Source: Candidatus Eiseniibacteriota bacterium
GTDB lineage: Bacteria > Eisenbacteria > RBG-16-71-46
Direction: 5' to 3'
Assembly: GCA_031370785.1 (NCBI GenBank)
Contig: JANMQY010000010.1
Span: forward strand, 1-23,188
DNA length: 23,188 bases
The notes beneath the pieces are model-generated. The model saw nothing but the letters and a program-made list of their open reading frames with translations, did not search any database and was not told the origin of the DNA. Position numbers and translations under genes: made by a program. Every line of letters starts with the position of its first letter. Within the stretch, counting starts at the first letter, position 1. Shown piece by piece: positions 1-19,366 of this stretch.

Positions 1-524
1 ATCAGCTGCAGGCGACCGTTCAGGGCCGGACCGGAGGCGGGTCCATGCAGCGACGTGGTCGCGGTGAGGCGCACCTTCTTGCCTGCGAACAGCTGAGCCA
101 CGCGTGAGTCGCCGTCCACCGTGACCCGCACGGTGTCGGTCACGCCCGGCTGGAACACTAGCGTCTGAAAGAATACCGGGGTCGTGCTCCTCGGATCGGT
201 CGCTTCGTCGCTGAGGTAGACGCGCAGCGTGTCCTCGCCGCTTCCAGTCGAGTCGACCGCCACCGTGGCCATCGAGATGGTCACCGCGTCGATCGTCACG
301 ACATCCCCGATGCCGGTGAGGAGATTGATGTGCTCATCGTCGATCAGCGCGATCTCTCCGCTCGAGAGTCCACCCGGAGCCGGCGGAATCGGACCGAAGG
401 CAACTCGAGTCTGTGAAGGCTGCATGTAGCTCAACACGTCCACCTTGAGGATCAGGCTGCGATCGCCGCAGCCGGCGAGCAGCGCCGCAAGCACTGTGCA
501 GAGAAGTATCCGATTGGTGCGCAC
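1..524 (-). CDS. Putative lipoprotein (3' end runs off the window); not in the ORF track
   Basis: Manual translation from GTG at 524: MRTNRILLCTVLAALLAG|CGDRSLILKVDVLSYMQPSQTRVAFGPIPPAPGG..., open to position 1. It has a basic N-terminus, a hydrophobic core and the lipobox LAGC. A GGAGG RBS at 529-533 abuts the TGA of the upstream gene. Confidence 0.85.
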   Translation of the reverse strand, partial: MRTNRILLCTVLAALLAGCGDRSLILKVDVLSYMQPSQTRVAFGPIPPAPGGLSSGEIALIDDEHINLLTGIGDVVTIDAVTISMATVAVDSTGSGEDTLRVYLSDEATDPRSTTPVFFQTLVFQPGVTDTVRVTVDGDSRVAQLFAGKKVRLTATTSLHGPASGPALNGRLQL

Positions 525-533
525 GTCGCCTCC

Positions 534-1871
534 TCAGTGGTAGAACGCGAGCCCGGCCCCAAGCTCCAGGGTGCGCTCGCGCGTCAGGTTGCGACTGTTG
601 GTGGCGAGGGCGACGTCCAGCCCGAAATGGCCGAAGCGAATTCCGGTGCCGCCTCCGAACTGCATCATCTGATTGGCGTCGACGCTTCCGCCGGCACGCA
701 GCGCGATATTGCGAAGCCAGATCTCGGCGCCGGCATGGCCCTCGGTGCTGTTGATGCCGCGAACGACGTCGCCCGCGAGCAGCACGGTTCCGAGACGCAG
801 CGCGACGTTGGCCACGACCGTGGTCGGCACGTCGCTGGTGAAGGGGGCGTCGGTGCGGATCACGTTCTGCACGTAGTTGCCGGACGCGCTGTCGGTGTAG
901 GCCAGGCTCTCGCGAACCTTCCAGTCGATGCGGGTCGCAACGTCATTGGCGCCGAGTCCCAGCTCGAGATTTCCCATCAGCCACACGGCGCCGAGGTCGA
1001 GCCCGCGTCCCCAGCCACCGCCGCTCAGGCCGGCATCCCGATAGTGGCCAGTGTAGCCGATGTCGACCGGATTGCTGCCGAACAGGGTGTCGCTGGTCGT
1101 AAAGGACGCCACGTTCTCCGCCTGGCCGTAGGCCAGCCCGCGGAGAATCTTGACCCGTGCGCCGGCGTAGACGCCCGAGCCTCCCGGTGCGCGCGGATCG
1201 CCCTTCTGCATGAGAGGAATCGCGGCGCCGAGGTGCAGAGCCGCCGCGGCCTGCGCCCGACCATCGTCGAACACCTGATACTGCGTGTTGGGTGTGAAAG
1301 CCTCACCGTCGCGCAGCGCGCGACGCAGCGCATCGTTCAGGCTCAGGTCGTTGTCGTATTCGACGAGTGGTGCGACCGCCACGAAGAACTGGCGAATGCC
1401 GAAGCCGATCGCTGGCCCGTTGATGCTGCTCCCGATTTTCGAATGATCCTTCGGAAACACATCGGCGATGTCGCCGAGGTCGACCGCCAGTCGGTTCTGC
1501 GCGACCTCGATTGTGATGTCGCTCGAAGGCGTCTTCGATCCGCCGAGCGTGATGTTCCAGGGCGGGTTGTAGAGCAGATTCGCCAGCTCATACACGTTGA
1601 AGGTCGAGTCGCTCGGGTCGAAGCTCGGCAGGTCCGCCAGAACCGGGATCAGCCCGATCGGGAGCGGGATGCCGGTGCGCCCTTCCTTCGCCTCGGGCAC
1701 TGCTCGATACGCCACGTTGGAAGCCGCGCCGCCCGGGCCGCCGCCCAGCAGTACGCCACCCATGGCCATGCGTCTTGCACTGAAGCTCTGTGCGTCCGCG
1801 GTCGTCGCCAGGCATGCGAGCAGCAATGCCCACATACCGATCGTAGTTGATCTCATGGGGTTGGAAGCCAT
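534..1871 (-). CDS. Putative outer-membrane beta-barrel protein (FadL/TraF/PorV-like superfamily)
   Basis: The signal peptide (…ALLLACLATTADA|Q) is followed by SARRMAMGG, a plug-type N-terminal motif. The C-terminal half has Gly/aromatic alternating beta-strands (GLDLGAVW, HAGAEIW, LRAGG, FGLDVAL) and ends LELGAGLAFYH. Alternative start ATG at 1856. Confidence 0.75.
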   Translation of the reverse strand: MASNPMRSTTIGMWALLLACLATTADAQSFSARRMAMGGVLLGGGPGGAASNVAYRAVPEAKEGRTGIPLPIGLIPVLADLPSFDPSDSTFNVYELANLLYNPPWNITLGGSKTPSSDITIEVAQNRLAVDLGDIADVFPKDHSKIGSSINGPAIGFGIRQFFVAVAPLVEYDNDLSLNDALRRALRDGEAFTPNTQYQVFDDGRAQAAAALHLGAAIPLMQKGDPRAPGGSGVYAGARVKILRGLAYGQAENVASFTTSDTLFGSNPVDIGYTGHYRDAGLSGGGWGRGLDLGAVWLMGNLELGLGANDVATRIDWKVRESLAYTDSASGNYVQNVIRTDAPFTSDVPTTVVANVALRLGTVLLAGDVVRGINSTEGHAGAEIWLRNIALRAGGSVDANQMMQFGGGTGIRFGHFGLDVALATNSRNLTRERTLELGAGLAFYH

Positions 1872-1964: not shown

Positions 1965-4715
1965 TCAGCGCAGGCGCATCAGCCGCCGAACCGCCGCTTC
2001 GCCGCCCGCTTCGAGCCGCGCCCAGTAGAGTCCCGCGGGCACGCGTCCGCCCGACTCGTCGCGTCCGTCCCAGGTCACATCGTGCGGACCGGCAGCCAGC
2101 GGCCCGTCGATGAGGCTGCGCACCCGGCGCCCCGAGACGTCGAGCAGCAGGAGACGAGTGCGCTCCGCGTGCGGGAGCGCGAAGCGAAGAACCGTGAGCG
2201 CGCTCGAGGGGTTCGGTCGCGGCGGTTCGAGCGCGAGCCGGGTCGAGACGAGCGGGCCCTCGACCGCGGCGCCATTCAGCGGCTCGAGGAACCGGGTGGT
2301 GAGGATCGCCATCACGTCGTTCCTCAGCTGCGCGTGGTCCCAGCGATACGGGCGTCCGGACAGGAACGCGAAGCGCCCGCCTTTCGGACGCCGGCCCGCG
2401 CCGCCCGCGGGGCTCCGCACCGCGCCGAGTCCGCGCGAGGGAACGAAGCCCGACCCGGTGCGGAACAACAGTTCGCTCTCGGGAGTGGTGCGCACCGTGT
2501 CGAAGATCGCGCACAGGTTCTGGGTCCCGATCCGCGCGATGCTGTTGAAGCCGGGGCGAGTGGCGATGCAATCCAGCAGCGTGGCGCCGGTGGAGGTCCA
2601 GTTCACGCCGAGGTAGGCGCGCAACGAATCGCCGAGGAACGAGTCGCCCATGCGCGTCATGAGCAGAAGATTCCCGCCCGCGCGCAGGTAGGACAGCATC
2701 GGCGAGTCCTGCCACGCGGCGAGGTCGCCGCCGAAATTGTTGCCCACCCACACCACATTGCGGTATTGCCCGAGCACTTCGGCAGGCACATCGCCGTGCC
2801 CGAGCGGCGCGGGAAGCGCCGCGGGATAGCCGCTCGCGGGCGCGCCGAAGTTGTCCCAGAAGTCGACCGGGTAATCCCCGGAGAACGCGCGGTCGGTGTA
2901 GGCCGTGGTGATCTCGGCTCCATACGTTGCCCAGTCCACGCCATTGACGAGCAGGAGGGAGCGCTCGAATGTCGGATTCGAGACCGCGGTCTCCATGGAC
3001 TTGAGGATCCAGTCGTCCTTGTCGATCTCCACGGCGGTCGGTTCGTCGGCGACGTGCAGGACGAATACCTGCGAGACCAGCGAATCGTCGGCGACAAACG
3101 TGGTCTGCCCGGACGCTGTCGAGATCGTGACGTCCACCGGCATATGGAAAAGCTGCCACGACTGGCGCTGATCGAGGGTCAGCGTGACGTCCCAGCCGCC
3201 CCCTGATGCCGGGGCGCTGGACCAGCCGGCACGGTAGATCGGGTAGTACTCGCCGTAGACCCACTGCTGGAAGAAGTCGTCGAGGTTGCGGCCGGAGACC
3301 GACTCGCACACGTCGCGGAAGTCTTCGGTCACCGCGCTCTGGTAGCCCCACTGGGTGTGATACGTGCGCAGGGTCTGGAAGAACGTGCTGTCGCCGAGCA
3401 CGTGCCGCAGCATGTGCAGCACCCACGAACCCTTGTTGTAGGAAAGGTTGGAGTCGAAGACACGACCTTCGTTGGTCGCGTCCGGAACCCAGACCGTGCC
3501 CGGGCCGAGGAAGCGGTTCAGATTGATGTCGGAATGATAGGCCGTCGCGCCGCCGTTCGCCTCGGCCCACAGCGCTTCGGCATAGGTGGCGAAGCCTTCG
3601 TTGAGCCAGATGTGGTGAAAGTCCCGGCAGGTCACCAGATCGCCCCACCACTGGTGCGCGAGCTCGTGTGCCACGATGAATTCGTTGTAGACCCCCAGGC
3701 TGGTGCAGGTCTGATGCTCCATCCCACCGCCAAACGTGAACTCAGCGTGACCGTATTTCTCGGCGAGGAACGGATATTCGCCGAAGCGCGCCGCGAACGC
3801 TGCGATCATGGTCTTCACCTTGGCCTGGGACGCGGTCGCGCCGGCGACGGACTCGGGCACGTTATGAAAGCGAATGAGCATCGAGTCGGTGGGCGAGTAG
3901 CGATACCAGTCGTCGCTGACCGCATACGGGTAGCTGGCGATCGACACCAGGTAGCTGGCGATCGGATAGCGCTCACGCCAGGTAGTGGTCTTCCAGCTGC
4001 CATTGACGACGGCTCCGACCAGCGTGCCGTTCGACGCGGTGGTGAGTCCGCTCGGCGCGGTGAAGTGGATGTCGACCGAATCCGCTTTGTCCTCGGGAGC
4101 GTCCTTGCACGGCCACCAGGTGCGCGCCCCGTACGCTTCGGAAAGGCTCCAGATGAGCTGCCGGCCGTTCACGACCTGGAATCCGAAATAGCCCGCGGCG
4201 GTGGGGACACCATGATAGGTGGTGCTGACATCCACCGTCTCGCCGTCGGCGTAGATGCGATCGAGGTTGAGCGTCAGGACGTTCGCCGCTCGCGTCCAGG
4301 TCGTGGCCGTCCCTCCCGAAGTCGCGGCATCCACGACGATGTTCGAATAGAGATCGAGGTCGAGCGTGGAGATGGGGCCCCCGACGACCGTCGCCCGCAT
4401 GCGCACCGTGCCCGAAACCGTGCTCGTTGCGGGCGTGAAGGTGAGGTTCAGGTCGTACCAGTGCACGTCGTACTGAAGCTGGTTCGCGGTGGCGGGATGC
4501 GCCGCAACCTGCTCCATCGCGAACCGGGCCGCCTTCCATGCGGCGAGGTAGGGAGCCACGTCCCGTTCGTCGCGGATTTCCTTCTGGCCGCCCGGCAGCG
4601 GCGGAAACAGCACGGGTCTGGCGATCGCGGGGGCGGAGGGAATGCTCGCAAGCGAGAAGAGCATCACCGCCAGGAATGCAGCGGACCGGCAGGTCGATCG
4701 GGCAGAACAGCTCAT
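1965..4715 (-). CDS. Secreted M1-family zinc aminopeptidase with an extra alpha/beta domain and a C-terminal FlgD-Ig/T9SS-type sorting domain
   Basis: Motifs are GGMEH (GXMEN variant), HELAHQWWG…WLNEGFATY (HEXXH-x18-E) and SYNKGSWVLHMLR. The C-terminus is PRPNPSS…LLDVSGRRVRSL…WDGRDESGGRVPAGLYWARL. Start set at ATG 4715 (AGGAG upstream, followed by a signal peptide) rather than 4805. Confidence 0.92.
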   Translation of the reverse strand: MSCSARSTCRSAAFLAVMLFSLASIPSAPAIARPVLFPPLPGGQKEIRDERDVAPYLAAWKAARFAMEQVAAHPATANQLQYDVHWYDLNLTFTPATSTVSGTVRMRATVVGGPISTLDLDLYSNIVVDAATSGGTATTWTRAANVLTLNLDRIYADGETVDVSTTYHGVPTAAGYFGFQVVNGRQLIWSLSEAYGARTWWPCKDAPEDKADSVDIHFTAPSGLTTASNGTLVGAVVNGSWKTTTWRERYPIASYLVSIASYPYAVSDDWYRYSPTDSMLIRFHNVPESVAGATASQAKVKTMIAAFAARFGEYPFLAEKYGHAEFTFGGGMEHQTCTSLGVYNEFIVAHELAHQWWGDLVTCRDFHHIWLNEGFATYAEALWAEANGGATAYHSDINLNRFLGPGTVWVPDATNEGRVFDSNLSYNKGSWVLHMLRHVLGDSTFFQTLRTYHTQWGYQSAVTEDFRDVCESVSGRNLDDFFQQWVYGEYYPIYRAGWSSAPASGGGWDVTLTLDQRQSWQLFHMPVDVTISTASGQTTFVADDSLVSQVFVLHVADEPTAVEIDKDDWILKSMETAVSNPTFERSLLLVNGVDWATYGAEITTAYTDRAFSGDYPVDFWDNFGAPASGYPAALPAPLGHGDVPAEVLGQYRNVVWVGNNFGGDLAAWQDSPMLSYLRAGGNLLLMTRMGDSFLGDSLRAYLGVNWTSTGATLLDCIATRPGFNSIARIGTQNLCAIFDTVRTTPESELLFRTGSGFVPSRGLGAVRSPAGGAGRRPKGGRFAFLSGRPYRWDHAQLRNDVMAILTTRFLEPLNGAAVEGPLVSTRLALEPPRPNPSSALTVLRFALPHAERTRLLLLDVSGRRVRSLIDGPLAAGPHDVTWDGRDESGGRVPAGLYWARLEAGGEAAVRRLMRLR

Positions 4716-4886
4716 CAAAGGTGGGCTCCTGAAGCAGGCTGGAAGGGAATGGCGTCCCTGATCCGGTCCCGAACCGGGACGAAATTCAGGCGGGAAGTCT
4801 AACACCGCGCGGGGGTGAAGTGGCGCCTCGCCGCAGGAGCTACCGGAGGAGCGACAGCGAGGACCCGGGCGGATCCCGAGCCAGCC

Positions 4887-13941: not shown

Positions 13942-14853
13942 CTAGTGATATCGCGTCTTCAGAGTGCCCCACGAGCTGCGCAAGGCGGGCGTCGTCGAGG
14001 GAGCGAATTGCCACAGGCTTCCGTTTCCGCCCGGACTGGTTCCGAGCGCGGTCATGTACACGCTTCCGTCACTCGCTAGACAGACGCCGTGGATGAGACC
14101 ATCCGAGTCGTCATCCGACGAGACGAAAGGCACCCCCCAGCCCTGATCGCCGCCGGAAGGATCGAACGTGAAATCACCAAAGAACAGACTCGACGACCCG
14201 CCCGACACTGCTGGAAGTCGGCCTCCCAGGAGTGAATTGCCGACCTTGACTGTCGCGCCGGCATCCAGGCGAAGAAGCCCCTGGTTCGATCCGACGAAAA
14301 TGCGACCGTTCGGATCCAGGTCGACGTGATAAGGCGCGGCCATGGCGAATGGCTCACTTAGCGCACGCCATTCCGACCACGCCGCCGTTGCCGGATCCCG
14401 CCTCATGACGTGAGAGGGATCCGTGCCTACAGAAGAGAAGGCGCCGTAGATAGCTCCATCCGGTCCCAATGCCACGCACTCGGGGGCGATAGAGTCCTGG
14501 CCCAGCATTGCGCCGCTCTCGTCGTAGCGCAGCAGGCCGGTGCCGGCCGGCACGTAGAGAACGCGCGCGACCGGGTCGAACGCGATGGCGTCGACATTCG
14601 ATCCTGCTACCGCGTCCGGGATGATCGCGGACTTGATCCCGGCCTGCGTAATGCGCCAGACCTTCGGGGTCGGACCGTGATCGCCCACGAAAGCATCGTG
14701 CGAGATCGGATCGACCGCGAGTCCTCCCAGCGGCTGGCCGAGATCGCCGCCGATCTTGTGAGCGGTCCAGCCAGGCGGAGGAACCAGAGCGGCGTGAACC
14801 GGGGAGCAGGGAAGGAGAAGCAGGGCGGTGATCGCGAGGTAACGTAGACGCAT
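13942..14853 (-). CDS. Secreted beta-propeller-like (NHL/SMP-30-like) protein with C-terminal WGxxKxxY[RH] motif
   Basis: ATG 14853 with GGAG RBS and signal peptide MRLRYLAITALLLLPCSPVHA|A. Blade repeats are GLAVDP, AIAFDP, VALGPDGAIY, VDLDPNGRIF and VCLASDGSVY. It ends TPALRSSWGTLKTRYH. Confidence 0.82.
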   Translation of the reverse strand: MRLRYLAITALLLLPCSPVHAALVPPPGWTAHKIGGDLGQPLGGLAVDPISHDAFVGDHGPTPKVWRITQAGIKSAIIPDAVAGSNVDAIAFDPVARVLYVPAGTGLLRYDESGAMLGQDSIAPECVALGPDGAIYGAFSSVGTDPSHVMRRDPATAAWSEWRALSEPFAMAAPYHVDLDPNGRIFVGSNQGLLRLDAGATVKVGNSLLGGRLPAVSGGSSSLFFGDFTFDPSGGDQGWGVPFVSSDDDSDGLIHGVCLASDGSVYMTALGTSPGGNGSLWQFAPSTTPALRSSWGTLKTRYH

Positions 14854-15002
14854 TGCGAGACTCCACCCGGTCGAGTGGTTCGGTGCGGCGATAAGCCGCC
14901 CGAGCGGCGAGGCACAGGGCCTCGCGGGTCTGCCGGTCGTTGAGGTCGAGGTGCCAGCCCTGTCTTCGGGCCAGCCACGCGACTTACTCGATGCCTGAGA
15001 GT

Positions 15003-15030
15003 AATATAGAAGAAAGGAAGGCGCTGTCAA
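15003..15030 (-). promoter_or_regulatory. Near-consensus sigma70 promoter for the 13942-14853 gene
   Basis: On the minus strand: TTGACA (15030-15025), 16 nt spacer, TATATT (15008-15003). It lies in an AT-rich patch within GC-rich DNA. Confidence 0.7.
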
Positions 15031-15138
15031 CGAATTCCCCCGCCAGCGACCGCCGGTCCCTCGTCGCGGATGGTAGAGGCAGTCCGTCGAGATTCAGACG
15101 GTTCGGGCGCAGTGGCACTGCTACCAAAGCAGCATCGG

Positions 15139-15164
15139 TGGAGTAGCCCCGATTCGGTGGACGG
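15139..15164 (-). repeat. Probable IS3 right terminal inverted repeat
   Basis: On the minus strand: CCGTCCACCGAATCGGGGCTACTCCA-3'. It ends in the CA dinucleotide typical of IS3 ends (5'-TG…CA-3') and follows the transposase tail. No partner IR is seen in the window. Confidence 0.65.
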
Positions 15165-15380
15165 GTGAAGACTGTGGTTGATCGATGGCCGCGTGGGGCG
15201 GGGATCCGGGGAAGGCGTTTTCCTCCGATTCGCCCCCGAGGCCCGCTTCGTACCGCTTCTCGAACTGGATCGGCGAGAGATAGTCGATCGACGAATGGCG
15301 ACGTCTCGTGTTGTACCAGCCTTCGATGAACTCGAACACCACCGGGCGGGCCTGCCGCGCTGCCGGGAATCTCTGGCACG
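15139..15380 (-). mobile_element. IS3-family insertion sequence remnant (transposase C-terminus plus right end)
   Basis: The minus frame reads QRFPAARQARPVVFEFIEGWYNTRRRHSSIDYLSPIQFE, matching the IS3 OrfB C-terminal pattern (…IE.WYN..R.HS.L.Y.SP..FE). There is an in-frame stop just upstream and no DDE core. It ends in an IS3-like terminus. Confidence 0.85.
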
Positions 15381-15443
15381 ATAGTCACCCGAAGCCTAGA
15401 ATTACTGGCGTTCGACATCCACCAACCGTTCCCGGAGGTTGTC

Positions 15444-16151
15444 ATGCGCATGCGCCGCTCGATTGTGATCTCCCTCGCGCTGGCAGCCCTGTATTCCGCG
15501 TCCGTCTCGGCCGCTCCCACATTGCGGTACTCCTGGGACAACTGCGACGTCGTGGTGCCGCGCCGGGACTTCACCGGTCCCGCGATCTACACGCAGACAG
15601 TCTCCGTTGTGGGACTCGAGGGTCCGGTCGACCACTTCACTCTCGTCATCGGGTTCGGAAGTCAGTCGATTCCGTCCGCGTGGCAGTTCAGTGACTTTCA
15701 GCCGCCGTACTTTCCCCCATCGTGCCAGCCGAGCGGGAGGGTCTCCATGCTTCTCGGAGGAACGTCCTGCGACACCCTTCCCGGGATGCAGCTGAGCGGG
15801 CACTATTGGTTCAACCTCACGCCCGGCCTCTCCGGGCTCACGATCGACGGTGTGGGCGCCGGCGCCTTCACTCCGAATCCCAGCCAGCGCTACACGCTGG
15901 TTCGCATCGCTTTCAACCACGCCAACTCGGTGGCGGGCGCCGGCGGCCCCGGATCCTGCGGCGGCGCCGATCAGCCACTCCAATTCGCGATCGGCGATCT
16001 GTACCTGAATGGAGTAGATCAACGCGGGCACGCCGACTGGGAGAACTGCCTGCTCACATGGAACACGGCGTGGTATGGCCGCCCGGATTGTCCGCTGTTC
16101 GTGCCGGTGAAGAACCGGACCTGGGGGCAGATCAAATCGATGTACAGGTAA
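15444..16151 (+). CDS. Secreted Cys-containing beta-rich protein with C-terminal WGxxKxxYR motif
   Basis: GGAGG RBS at 15434-15438 and signal peptide …ALYSASVSA|A. The mature N-terminus is PTLRYSWDNC and the mature chain has six Cys. It ends VPVKNRTWGQIKSMYR. Confidence 0.85.
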   Translation: MRMRRSIVISLALAALYSASVSAAPTLRYSWDNCDVVVPRRDFTGPAIYTQTVSVVGLEGPVDHFTLVIGFGSQSIPSAWQFSDFQPPYFPPSCQPSGRVSMLLGGTSCDTLPGMQLSGHYWFNLTPGLSGLTIDGVGAGAFTPNPSQRYTLVRIAFNHANSVAGAGGPGSCGGADQPLQFAIGDLYLNGVDQRGHADWENCLLTWNTAWYGRPDCPLFVPVKNRTWGQIKSMYR

Positions 16152-16193
16152 CGCCGCCCCATCGCGGCGAGCCGACCCGGCGTCGCGGCCGCC

Positions 16194-17114
16194 CTATCGA
16201 TACGCCGCCTTGAGCCGTCCCCAGGTCGTGCGCGTCACCGGCACGGTCGGCGAGTTGAGGCGGAGCGTGGCGCGGGCAAACACGCGTCCGATATCTTGGG
16301 GCGCCGCGCACGTCCCGGTTGCCTCGGCGTAGCGGATGAACTCCTCGTTGCTTTCGACCGGCCCGACGAGCGGGGCATAGTGGATGTAGCCACGCGTCTC
16401 GGAGCGACTGGTGCCGATCACCACGCCGGCGTTGTCCACGCACTCGGACGTCCCGTAGTCGACGACGTACTCCACCCGCATGCAATCATCGAATGTTCCT
16501 GCCGGAACGGTCGCCGACTCGATGGCGGCAATCTTCCCGTGCAGGAATATGTTGCTCGCCAGATCGGGAATCAGCTGAAGCGTGAAGGTGTTCCCGATCG
16601 TCAGGTCCGAGACCAGCCACAGCCACGAGCGCGTGTCCGCAAAGTTGCAACGCCAGGCCGCGATTTCCTGCGCGGTCTTCCGATACGCAAACTCGCCGTT
16701 CAGCAGCACAGCGTAGCTGCCGGCAGGTGCGTTCGTGGGGCACGGACTGTCGGTCAACAAGTTCAGGATCTTCTGCTGCAGATCGGGCCGTGCCTCCCAC
16801 ACCCGGCGCAGAAACGCGTCAGGCACCAGAGAGGCAAGCGCCGTCGCAGCCACCGGGCCTGCGATCACTTCCTGACGCAGGTACTGCGCCTGGATTCCAT
16901 TGGGCGCAACGGTGGTGCCGTCCAGGAAGATGCGAATCTGGTTATCCAGGACCAGCAGATTGGTGTCGAATGACTCGTAGTGCTGGTCGTAGCGCCAGTT
17001 GCGGCCGTCCTCATTGGGCCAGAGCGCGTCCATGGTGGGGCTCTGCGAGAGGGCCGGGCGAGCGAGGGAGAGGCCGGCGGCGAGGCAGAAGAACGCTGCG
17101 AGTGCGGTTCTCAT
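16194..17114 (-). CDS. Secreted protein (TVPAGTF beta-sheet motif, DUF3108/TapB-like) with C-terminal WGxxKxxYR motif
   Basis: Start reassigned to ATG 17114 (AGGAGGG RBS). Signal peptide MRTALAAFFCLAAGLSLARPALS|Q. Internal motifs are WPNEDGRNWRY, ATVPAGTFDDCMRVEY and YAPLVGPV. It ends VPVTRTTWGRLKAAYR. Confidence 0.85.
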   Translation of the reverse strand: MRTALAAFFCLAAGLSLARPALSQSPTMDALWPNEDGRNWRYDQHYESFDTNLLVLDNQIRIFLDGTTVAPNGIQAQYLRQEVIAGPVAATALASLVPDAFLRRVWEARPDLQQKILNLLTDSPCPTNAPAGSYAVLLNGEFAYRKTAQEIAAWRCNFADTRSWLWLVSDLTIGNTFTLQLIPDLASNIFLHGKIAAIESATVPAGTFDDCMRVEYVVDYGTSECVDNAGVVIGTSRSETRGYIHYAPLVGPVESNEEFIRYAEATGTCAAPQDIGRVFARATLRLNSPTVPVTRTTWGRLKAAYR

Positions 17115-17310
17115 GGCGAAGACCCTCCTGAGGGCGAAGGGCGCGCAGGCCCCTGTGCACGGACAGAGCATAGGTTCGCGCAAAGGATCCCTCAATGACA
17201 AACAACGGGGCCTGAATCTGGGCTCACCAAAAGGGCTCAAGGGCCGGCCGAGCCCCGCCGATAAGGACACGGGTGATTCGTTGCAGGCCCCCCTATCGGA
17301 GGAAATTCCC

Positions 17311-18549
17311 GTGAGCCCACAAGCACAGTACTGGCTCGAGACAATTGCGCTGTGGCAGCCGATGCAGAGCGCGATTCTCTTCATCTGGGGAGCCAGCGAC
17401 CCTGCGTGGCTTCTCGTGACCAAGCGACTCTTCCTGCTCATGCCCTTTGGCGCGGCCGTCATCGGTTATTGGACGAGCGTGCTGTGCCTGCCGACGATCC
17501 TGGTGCGCACCAAACGCCGCGCTTTCGTCGGTCTGGTCATCGTTACGTGGTGGGATCTGGCGCGGTCGACGTTCACCTACTGGGGCGGTGTGTTCCGCTT
17601 CCTGCTGCGGCTCACGATCTCGCTGCTGGGCGCCGTCCAGATGCTCGTCGTTGGCCTCTGGGCCGCCGTTCAGGAGATGGTGCTCCTGCCGTTCCGCCTG
17701 ATCCGGAACGTGGGCAACAACATGCTCAACCCCGGAGTCCCCTGGATCGCGGTCACGATGACGTTCTTCTGGTGCGTGTTCGAAGCGATGATCTTCACCT
17801 ATGTGATGACGTCGCTCGTCATCGATACGCTGTCGAACCTCGCGGGCACCGAGATGACGGAAGCCGCGGTGCGGGTCCCGCTCTTCCTCTTCATGCTCTT
17901 CATCATTCTCGGAAGCTACGCGGTGCTCTCGACGTGGACGACGGCGCTGAAGAGCCGAGACGTGCCCTCGATCATCAAGATCGGCGTCGTTGAGCTGGTG
18001 GCGATGTTCGTCGAAGTGGTCTTCCTGTACCGGGAGTTCGTGGACGCCCTGGTGCCCTGGTTCGCCCAGCACACCTCGGGAAACTTCGAGCTCGGGATCT
18101 TCGGCACGCTGTCGATCGCAGGGCTTACCTGGCTCGGCATCCGCAGCCTGTCATGGTTCCTGTTCGCCTCGGCAGGTACCCCGACGATCATGGCGATCAT
18201 CCAGGGTCAGGGTGTCGGCAACCGTGACGTCGCCGGCGTGGTCCGGCAGGAGTTCAGGCTGTTCTCGGAGAACTACACCAGCCAGCTCCGCAAGGAGTTC
18301 GCATGGGTGGGCGCGGAAGGGGAGCGGCTCTTGGACGCGTTCCTCGTGCCGCCGATGCAGCTCGTCGCGGCGGCGCTCAACTTCGTCACGCTGCTGGCGA
18401 TGAACCGGCACCTGATCGAGCTGCCACTCCAGAGCGTGCGGGACTTCAAGGACGCGCGGTCGGTGATCACGGGCACTCCTCGCCCTCGCGCTGCTGCTGC
18501 AGCGCGAGTCGCGCCGCGCGACGACTCACAGTCCAGCGAGGCCGCCTGA
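17311..18549 (+). CDS. Uncharacterised multi-pass inner-membrane protein
   Basis: GGAGG at 17298-17302 precedes GTG 17311. It has many hydrophobic/aromatic helices and strong GC3 codon bias. The upstream part of the track ORF (16999-17310) overlaps the divergent gene. Confidence 0.8.
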   Translation: MSPQAQYWLETIALWQPMQSAILFIWGASDPAWLLVTKRLFLLMPFGAAVIGYWTSVLCLPTILVRTKRRAFVGLVIVTWWDLARSTFTYWGGVFRFLLRLTISLLGAVQMLVVGLWAAVQEMVLLPFRLIRNVGNNMLNPGVPWIAVTMTFFWCVFEAMIFTYVMTSLVIDTLSNLAGTEMTEAAVRVPLFLFMLFIILGSYAVLSTWTTALKSRDVPSIIKIGVVELVAMFVEVVFLYREFVDALVPWFAQHTSGNFELGIFGTLSIAGLTWLGIRSLSWFLFASAGTPTIMAIIQGQGVGNRDVAGVVRQEFRLFSENYTSQLRKEFAWVGAEGERLLDAFLVPPMQLVAAALNFVTLLAMNRHLIELPLQSVRDFKDARSVITGTPRPRAAAAARVAPRDDSQSSEAA

Positions 18550-18550
18550 C

Positions 18551-19366
18551 ATGCGCGCGCTCACTCTCGTAGCTCTCGCGGCGGTGTTTCTCGGCCAGGG
18601 ATGCCTGCCGGCGCCTCAGGCGCGGTCGGCACCCCAGGCGCGTACCGCGCTCCAGACCCCGAGCGCGCCGGCCGCCACCGCCGGTCGCCTGGTCGTGTTC
18701 ATCGGGGTCGACATCAGCGGTTCCTTCATGAGCGGCAAGTACTTCGATGACTCGATCGAGTTCCTCGCCCGATACATCCACGCTCACCTGAATGGGCTCG
18801 GCGGCCTCGAGATTCCCCATTCATTGTTCGTCGGAACCATCGGCGGCGTGAAGAAGGGCGAGGCCAAGACCATGTTTCCGATCCAGACGTTCCAGGACCG
18901 CTCGGTCGAGGAGATCGAGACGCAACTGAGGACGCTCTTCCCACCGAAGAAGCAGAATCCGTTCACCGACTTCAACGCGTTCTTCGTACAGGTCGCGGAT
19001 CTGGTCGAGGCGAAGAAGCTCATCCTGAAGCCGGTCTCGATCGTGCTGCTCACCGACGGCCAGCCGGACCTGGGTGGCGCGACACGGTCGGCGAGGTTCC
19101 GCAGGATCACGCTGCGGCCGCTCGAGAAGCTGTCGCGCAACATCACCCTGCGTGTCCTCTACACCGATGCGGTCACGGCGAAGAGCTGGCGGGACGAAGT
19201 GCCGCGCAAGCGCGTCAAGGTCTGGACACAGGACGCGGTCGTCATGGCGGAGTGGAACGACCCGAAGACGCTGGTTCCCGGCCGGCCGAACGCCGATCAG
19301 GAGAAATTCTTCTCCTGGGTCCGGGACAACGTCGACTTCCAGCCGCGCCTGCACCGGGTGGACTGA
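18551..19366 (+). CDS. VWA-domain (MIDAS) lipoprotein
   Basis: Signal peptide with lipobox-like LGQG|C. MIDAS elements are VFIGVDISGS (DxSxS), FTDF and VLLTDG. It starts 1 nt after the upstream stop. Confidence 0.85.
   Translation: MRALTLVALAAVFLGQGCLPAPQARSAPQARTALQTPSAPAATAGRLVVFIGVDISGSFMSGKYFDDSIEFLARYIHAHLNGLGGLEIPHSLFVGTIGGVKKGEAKTMFPIQTFQDRSVEEIETQLRTLFPPKKQNPFTDFNAFFVQVADLVEAKKLILKPVSIVLLTDGQPDLGGATRSARFRRITLRPLEKLSRNITLRVLYTDAVTAKSWRDEVPRKRVKVWTQDAVVMAEWNDPKTLVPGRPNADQEKFFSWVRDNVDFQPRLHRVD

Follow-up and report, generated by a model that had tools for sequence, protein, structure and literature searches.

The window analysed here, a stretch of 23,188 nucleotides (contig JANMQY010000010.1, Candidatus Eiseniibacteriota; the genome holding it is called G000), contains three neighbouring genes, A, B and C, whose products end in the same 15-residue tail. 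This raises the question what a peptide does that stands directly before the stop codon of otherwise different proteins. The tail is a portable C-terminal tag on dozens of small, unrelated, predicted Sec-exported proteins. Judged by sequence comparison, it appears to behave like a C-terminal sorting signal since it swaps with PEP-CTERM tails and with T9SS (type IX secretion system) C-terminal domains (CTDs) at the same position, while lying outside both the CTD and the PEP-CTERM families. The best explanation, for and against which the scales stand about level, is an export signal that consists of a peptide alone and is read by the SprA/PorV/PorU machinery encoded in G000.

The three open reading frames (ORFs) translate as stated in the earlier note, with the motif directly at the stop (Table 1). 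Their bodies are unrelated with a best pairwise BLASTP E value of 5.0 or worse, which rules out full-length homology of A, B and C. A DNA repeat as origin of the tails was ruled out as well, because their DNA differs at synonymous positions, in agreement with the earlier note. The Atlas neighbours of cargo B are hypothetical proteins, most often from Ca. Eiseniibacteriota, and the fold of cargo C shows a weak likeness to exported YmcC-like proteins (template-modelling score 0.3–0.4). Among 114 homologue matches of cargo C (query included), the tail is terminal in 104. It is not always last, since in three more, distant homologues it is followed by several additional residues; the four most distant ones lack it.

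Table 1. Tagged genes, tag copies and a CTD-bearing gene in the window
Feature	Position	Strand	Basis
Cargo A, 303 aa: predicted signal peptide, probable beta-propeller body, tag	13942..14853	-	SSL_N match E 6.5e-6, weak NHL match
Tag copy A + stop codon	13942..13989	-	Position-specific scoring matrix (PSSM) score 41.9
Cargo B, 235 aa: predicted signal peptide, six-Cys body, no known family, tag	15444..16151	+	ORF and family searches
Tag copy B + stop codon	16104..16151	+	PSSM score 54.5
Cargo C, 306 aa: predicted signal peptide, beta-sheet body, coil linker, tag as predicted helix	16194..17114	-	AlphaFold2 mean pLDDT (per-residue confidence) 90
Tag copy C + stop codon	16194..16241	-	PSSM score 45.7
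M1 peptidase with terminal FlgD-Ig/T9SS-type CTD	1965..4805	-	Pfam PF01433 + PF13860; one of 107 terminal-CTD ORFs

The strict regular expression gave 32 matches in the six-frame translation of G000 (6.78 million residues), all within two residues of a stop codon, and no internal match. Chance is thereby excluded as origin of the tail, and the claimed strict C-terminal placement held. With the relaxed terminal expression, 35 G000 ORFs were found; they share the consensus [TV]-P-x4-[ST]-W-G-x-[LI]-K-x-x-Y-R with the three window proteins. Over all G000 tags, it reads T-P-[TVA]-x3-[TS]-W-G-x-[LI]-K-x-h-Y-R. C84:17933 (such handles give contig and position in G000), which is degenerate and has no signal peptide, was left out of the tag set, and L050, a chance match from Paenibacillus, was left out of the sequence logo. 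The tag core is 9–10 residues long, carries an invariant Lys in its interior and a single Arg at its end, and contains no transmembrane segment, as had been noted.

Clustering of 34 tagged bodies yielded 24 BLAST clusters. Signal peptides were called by a hydrophobicity heuristic and not by SignalP; with starts checked by hand they were present in 31 of the 34 proteins, the other three being cut by contig ends. The enrichment on exported proteins that the earlier note had suggested was also evident with automatic gene calls, namely 21 of 31 tagged proteins compared to 702 of 2514 other G000 proteins (28%). Tagged proteins of G000 are 157–332 aa long (one contig-end fragment aside), while the median length of the CTD proteins is 682 aa. 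When the three window proteins, 79 other tagged proteins and 30 rows of alignment A2 were compared with Pfam and NCBIfam, none of the models was found to include the tail. The motif was not described in the literature searched, a search that left out supplements and most subscription papers. The tag is real, widespread and, to the extent covered by this literature and the two family libraries, undescribed. Two homologous (68%) probable lipoproteins of G000 (C23:4108-5568 and C133:85639-86397) carry degenerate tags, and the tag may thus also occur on lipid-anchored cargo.

The tag extends well beyond G000. A DNA pattern with in-frame stop, run over 151 genomes of the window's phylum, matched 143 of them with 0 to 68 matches each; the reversed pattern, applied as a control, gave one match in the 151 genomes. 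In G035 (L289, L290), variant tails end in ...LLD or have other last residues in place of Y-R, so strict counts understate the tag. A contig scan of GTDB, which is a sample of taxa, returned at least 131 stretches. Among the matches listed, most are titled Ca. Eisenbacteria, Krumholzibacteriia, Latescibacteria or just 'bacterium', with at least 78 copies in one genome; complete tagged ORFs measure 130–431 aa, and 55 of 61 with at least 100 aa have a signal peptide by the same heuristic. Three of the groups named in the earlier note (Eisenbacteria, Krumholzibacteria and Latescibacteria) appear among the tag-bearing records. Names of homologues and Atlas entries likewise suggest Eisenbacteria as the affiliation of G000. 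Family f7 has few tags; there, four of five genomes contain an LTD protein that is an orthologue of C129:10369 of G000.

Exchange with known signals was seen for a CHRD body of G000. Of its 120 best homologues, 114 end in the tag and six in a PEP-CTERM-type tail at the same junction (five classed by script, one by eye). The bodies of the latter are 68–70% identical to the query, and one carries PF07589. Exchange with T9SS CTDs was seen at lower identity: C17:4926, which ends in Por_Secre_tail, is 32–33% identical to three tagged proteins, and the LTD CTD protein C147:44721 is 39% identical to the tagged L083. The proposed sorting-signal character is supported by these swaps. Besides beta-helices, the cargo includes domains typical of surface-sorted proteins, namely choice-of-anchor J (over cut-off), choice-of-anchor R and Y (under cut-off), DNRLRE, DUF4114, CHRD, LTD and CARDB.

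G000 encodes SprA, and its PorU scored over the NCBIfam cut-off (466 vs 420 bits) and is located directly before a PorV gene. The encoded PorV groups with PorV orthologues (SH-aLRT 95) in a quick tree with long branches, built from 44 fetched rows and 11 from G000. About ten PorV-family barrels are present. A terminal CTD was found in 107 G000 ORFs, none of which carries the tag; in turn, a local CTD hidden Markov model matched none of 34 tagged G000 ORFs, and no CTD match was obtained with Pfam and NCBIfam on the window proteins or 79 other tagged proteins. SprA was detected in all 27 tested genomes with at least ten tags.

Some genomes of the scan hold a single tagged gene that encodes a signal peptide, an Fn3-like domain of approx. 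95 aa and the tag. This founder family of about 133 aa has a near-invariant tag and is distributed across lineages of the Fibrobacterota-Chlorobiota-Bacteroidota (FCB) group (L293:6892-7290, L147:9933-10385; alignments A1 and A2). Eighty homologues were found, some of them named Calditrichaeota or KSB1; founder-type genes occur in Ignavibacteria/Calditrichota/Kapabacteria-type genomes, and Atlas lists the family as hypothetical in Ignavibacteriota, Fidelibacterota and Bacteroidota. When 251 genomes of the phylum of G201 (titled Ca. Kapaibacterium) were scanned, the pattern occurred in 85, in 83 of them once; the control pattern gave 8 matches, and at least two of the pattern matches look like chance. 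Founder residues that the pattern does not specify are nonetheless fixed (Ser 40/46, Ala 40/46, Met/Leu 46/46), and the tail is nearly invariant while the bodies are only about 30% identical.

SprA was present in all 85 pattern-positive genomes of this sample, and the pattern occurred in none of the 52 genomes without SprA, a figure that derives nearly entirely from a single sampling stratum, in which 48 of 57 genomes have no SprA. When 63 genomes were searched with a founder profile, four more full-length founders came to light; each belongs to a SprA-positive genome, and the six genomes without SprA yielded none. In this phylum sample, the founder-type family was found only together with SprA.

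Several features connect the founder with type IX secretion. Its Fn3-like domain commonly precedes T9SS CTDs; among the 150 best representatives, it is situated up to 110 residues from the C-terminus together with a CTD in 8 cases and with the tag in 23. Seven out of ten Atlas structure neighbours are Por_Secre_tail clusters. No PDB entry matched in sequence below E 0.09, and the fold matches are generic Fn3/Ig domains. A porD-like gene is located directly upstream in 9 of 83 loci of a neighbour scan seeded with the tail itself; the one member tested scored over the Pfam cut-off for DUF4835. The founder linker [ST]-[ASG]-[VI], whose second and third positions each hold in 25 of 29 sequences, looks like the T9SS cleavage consensus PT/GI given in section 3.5 of PMC11969387. 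The founder is a candidate for an uncharacterised T9SS accessory protein.

In the AlphaFold2 (AF2) models of both cargo C (residues 298–305, block pLDDT 74–82) and the founder protein (125–130, pLDDT about 60), a coil linker leads into a short helix formed by the tail core. The amphipathic helix that the earlier note had proposed stood in part: a short helix is predicted, but the mean hydrophobic moment amounts to 0.50 at 100 degrees (shuffled 0.40), rises to 0.60 at 180 degrees and does not single out a helix. The amphipathic helix is only predicted. A complex prediction with G000 PorV (16–308, 50-row alignment) and the last 31 residues of cargo C (65-row) scored 0.00 with unfolded controls and was not used as evidence.

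Compared to known systems, the tag resembles the type A CTDs (Por_Secre_tail PF18962, FlgD_ig PF13860), which are read by SprA/PorV and cut by PorU, in its combination of a Sec signal peptide with a terminal signal on unrelated cargo, in many copies per genome, a Lys near the end, the exchange on shared bodies, the presence of the machine in G000 and the founder linker. It differs in its length of about 15 residues, in its fixed W-G-x-h-K within a predicted helix and in its small cargo only; it matches no CTD model in sequence, most G000 linkers contain Pro, and most SprA-positive genomes of the G201 phylum sample have no tag. The folded beta-sandwich of 5–7 strands with PF18962 or PF13860 at the C-terminus that defines CTDs is lacking. 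Short CTDs of Prevotella intermedia are a precedent for shrunken yet cleaved T9SS signals; as described in the consulted part of PMC11969387, they are three-stranded sheets with motifs B, D and E, while the tag has a quarter of their length and none of these motifs.

With PEP-CTERM/exosortase, MYXO-CTERM, GlyGly-CTERM and LPXTG signals, the tag shares a short terminal segment after a V/T-P linker, a basic end, dozens of small cargoes from the same families and the exact positional swap on CHRD bodies. Measured against the positional criteria for tripartite sorting signals in the consulted part of 10.1101/2023.06.07.544157, it has the terminal location, many copies per genome, signal peptide and unrelated cargo. 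A transmembrane helix followed by an Arg cluster (2–5 residues) is missing, and no strict co-occurrence with exosortase (PF09721) was found as it is typical for PEP-CTERM.

Candidate readers were examined as well. G000 contains one exosortase and two PEP-CTERM-like ORFs, and exosortase was detected in 31 of 50 genomes. It was not found in G001 (35 tags, 100% complete), G015 (38, 98%), G082 (19, 99%), G096 and G107, while all four genus-g41 genomes without strict tag contain it. Since exosortase is missing from tag-rich genomes that are 92–100% complete and present in tag-less ones, it was rejected as reader; rhombosortase and myxosortase were not part of this search. The gene neighbourhood did not point to a dedicated reader either, as G000 tagged genes have no common neighbour in the regions viewed. 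Founder loci show clade-level synteny only, with each neighbour family in at most 19 of the loci compared, and the LTD-tag gene of family f7 has an aminotransferase neighbour in three of four loci and no envelope gene. A dedicated PorV paralogue was not evident from PorV-family counts and the quick tree: three tag-bearing genomes around the Kapaibacterium record have 3–4 PorV-family matches each, about as many as tag-less genomes.

Tags without T9SS do exist, as tagged and CTD genes occur in an order of Patescibacteria in which no PorV was found in five genomes tested, yet true CTDs show the same pattern there. G193 (titled Ca. Kerfeldbacteria) has three tagged genes among genes with few G000 matches. 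The pattern is present in 16 of 21 genomes of its order compared to two chance-like matches in 199 other genomes of the phylum sample. The 21 tagged genes fetched (L433, L437, L439, L446-L463) form 10 clusters, 18 with a signal peptide (heuristic), and mostly are richer in G+C than their flanks. Nine match tagged cargo of tag-rich genomes at 31–54%. The contigs that carry them are long (one measures 823 kb in a genome of 1.0 Mb), and their sites differ. G000-type CTD proteins occur in 18 of the 21 genomes (47 matches, L474-L493), at a CTD-to-tag ratio near that of G000. Proteins of 177–188 aa composed of signal peptide, small domain and CTD recur in this order. The tagged and CTD genes are either passengers of capture from Eisenbacteria-like hosts or used on the host; the findings suggest such hosts and repeated gene capture, and the host T9SS is possibly used by these bacteria.

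The explanation by type IX secretion starts from what was observed: the tail is portable and terminal, it is exchanged for two known surface-sorting signals, and G000 encodes SprA, PorU and PorV; the co-occurrence of tagged and CTD genes even in the Patescibacteria order supports it. The tail would be read in the periplasm by a T9SS-like machine with SprA as translocon and PorV as carrier, which would deliver tagged cargo to the cell surface. Its core W-G-x-h-K-x-h-[YF]-R would fold on binding and dock in carrier or translocon, and the invariant Lys may act like the conserved C-terminal Lys of CTDs. Folded CTDs bind between PorV loops and SprA, with a near-invariant Lys of the C-terminal region contacting PorV, according to the consulted part of PMC10994853. 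The likely ancestor of the tag is the tail of an old FCB gene in single copy, with Fn3-like domain and tag; from there it would have multiplied onto many cargoes in the Eisenbacteria/Krumholzibacteria lineage. PorU may then cut off the tag: the founder linker appears to fit the T9SS consensus, the Pro-containing G000 linker does not. The overall scenario is more doubtful and can only be put forward tentatively. It would comprise the first fold-free, peptide-only type IX signal, a founder that docks on the T9SS by its 10-residue tail, a tail that became the label for up to ~80 small surface proteins per Eisenbacteria/Krumholzibacteria genome, and a Patescibacteria order, probably living on such hosts, that captured tagged and CTD genes to dock on or ride host export.

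Several observations weigh against reading by the T9SS. SprA is also present in six of seven tested genomes of the window's phylum without strict tag, several SprA-positive genomes of this phylum show no tag pattern at all, and 114 of 199 SprA-positive genomes of the G201 phylum sample have none. Conversely, G193, G177 and G186 have few tags and no SprA; those of G177 and G186 are located on short contigs, but in Patescibacteria tagged genes stand on true chromosomes without SprA (G193) and without any PorV-family gene in the five genomes of the order tested (0/5). The tag-SprA co-occurrence rests on few independent events, and the SprA-less set may reflect one loss event, as nearly all of these genomes come from one stratum. 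The GldM model had no match in G000, with control genomes equally silent. Pro occupies the would-be cleavage position in 30 of 34 G000 tags, the founder gene was not found in G000 even by profile search, the small size of tagged cargo is unexplained, and the PEP-CTERM exchange (6 of 120 CHRD homologues) fits any surface address. In the consulted parts of PMC10994853 and PMC11285876, T9SS recognition depends on a folded beta-sandwich filling a shaped pocket; the latter stresses the intact CTD fold, yet also mentions that a targeting signal lies within the 22 C-terminal residues of HBP35. The shortest CTDs described in the consulted part of PMC11969387 are 50–60 aa sheets (Prevotella intermedia).

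Some of these points would be accounted for by a docking or retention peptide that binds non-covalently to an envelope receptor, scaffold or membrane surface, like a minimal dockerin or amphipathic anchor, and plays no role in crossing the outer membrane. This is unlikely but deserves consideration: the tail is basic and aromatic with a predicted helix on a coil linker, Pro stands where cleavage would occur, the cargo is small, some homologues carry residues after the tail, the tag is kept in Patescibacteria without PorV, and a nearly invariant founder tail on divergent bodies would be expected of a stable binding partner. Binding modules usually also occur internally or in tandem, while all 32 strict matches end at most two residues from a stop. 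Moreover, a docking peptide does not explain the exchange with T9SS CTDs and PEP-CTERM tails at the same position nor the lack of the pattern in SprA-less genomes of the G201 phylum sample, and its cargo still needs a route out. Alternatively, the tag could be read by a separate export or processing machine that was inherited in FCB lineages beside the T9SS, with the SprA co-occurrence due to shared ancestry. The lack of fold likeness between tag and CTDs agrees with this, as do the many SprA-positive, tag-negative genomes (114/199), which are expected after loss of a dedicated reader. However, no neighbour is conserved across founder loci, exosortase is excluded and no extra PorV-family carrier is evident; we consider a separate machine slightly less probable than a docking peptide. 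A tail without any sorting role, which might cap a structure, mark proteins for degradation or stem from a spread DNA element, is very improbable. It is favoured only by the fact that the reader is not shown, and it conflicts with the synonymous codon diversity, the 24 unrelated body clusters, the enrichment in signal-peptide proteins, the single match of the reversed pattern in 151 genomes and the exchange with known signals.

A peptide-only T9SS signal would be new compared to the published structures, in which CTDs bind as folded domains, and is not established. If the T9SS reads the tag, a folded C-terminal domain could no longer be regarded as a requirement of type IX export, and a 15-residue display tag would be at hand. 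Through the tag, thousands of hypothetical proteins from abundant uncultured phyla would be given a destination. With the single-copy founder gene, the question reaches phyla with cultured members and becomes testable; cultured members of these phyla include Ignavibacterium, Melioribacter, Caldithrix and Rhodothermus, which may hold the gene. The Patescibacteria result amounts to a host prediction for a whole order and is a starting point for asking how epibionts of this kind might make use of host secretion. The T9SS of G000 (SprA, PorU, about ten PorV-family barrels, 107 CTD proteins) has no detectable GldM (control silent), which raises the question how export is powered outside Bacteroidia.

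The window contains further features. The M1 peptidase (Table 1) is an example of the other, CTD-bearing cargo class of G000. A DUF5723/TraF_2 outer-membrane barrel with a weak PorV2 match is encoded at 534-1871 (-) and is followed by a lipoprotein at 3-524 (-); in G151 (L152:5964-9309), a DUF5723 barrel likewise adjoins a probable lipoprotein. A membrane protein and a vWA-like lipoprotein are encoded at 16999-19366 (+). These had no Pfam or NCBIfam family matches, and a look-alike pair was recognised by eye in G151 (L153:14372-16381). Between genes A and B, the region ~15240-15350 (-) resembles by eye what we take to be the C-terminal end of an IS3-family transposase. Sigma-70-like promoter matches are located 5' of A (15030-15003, -; 11/12) and of B (15373-15402, +; 9/12), two matches compared to 0.4 expected.

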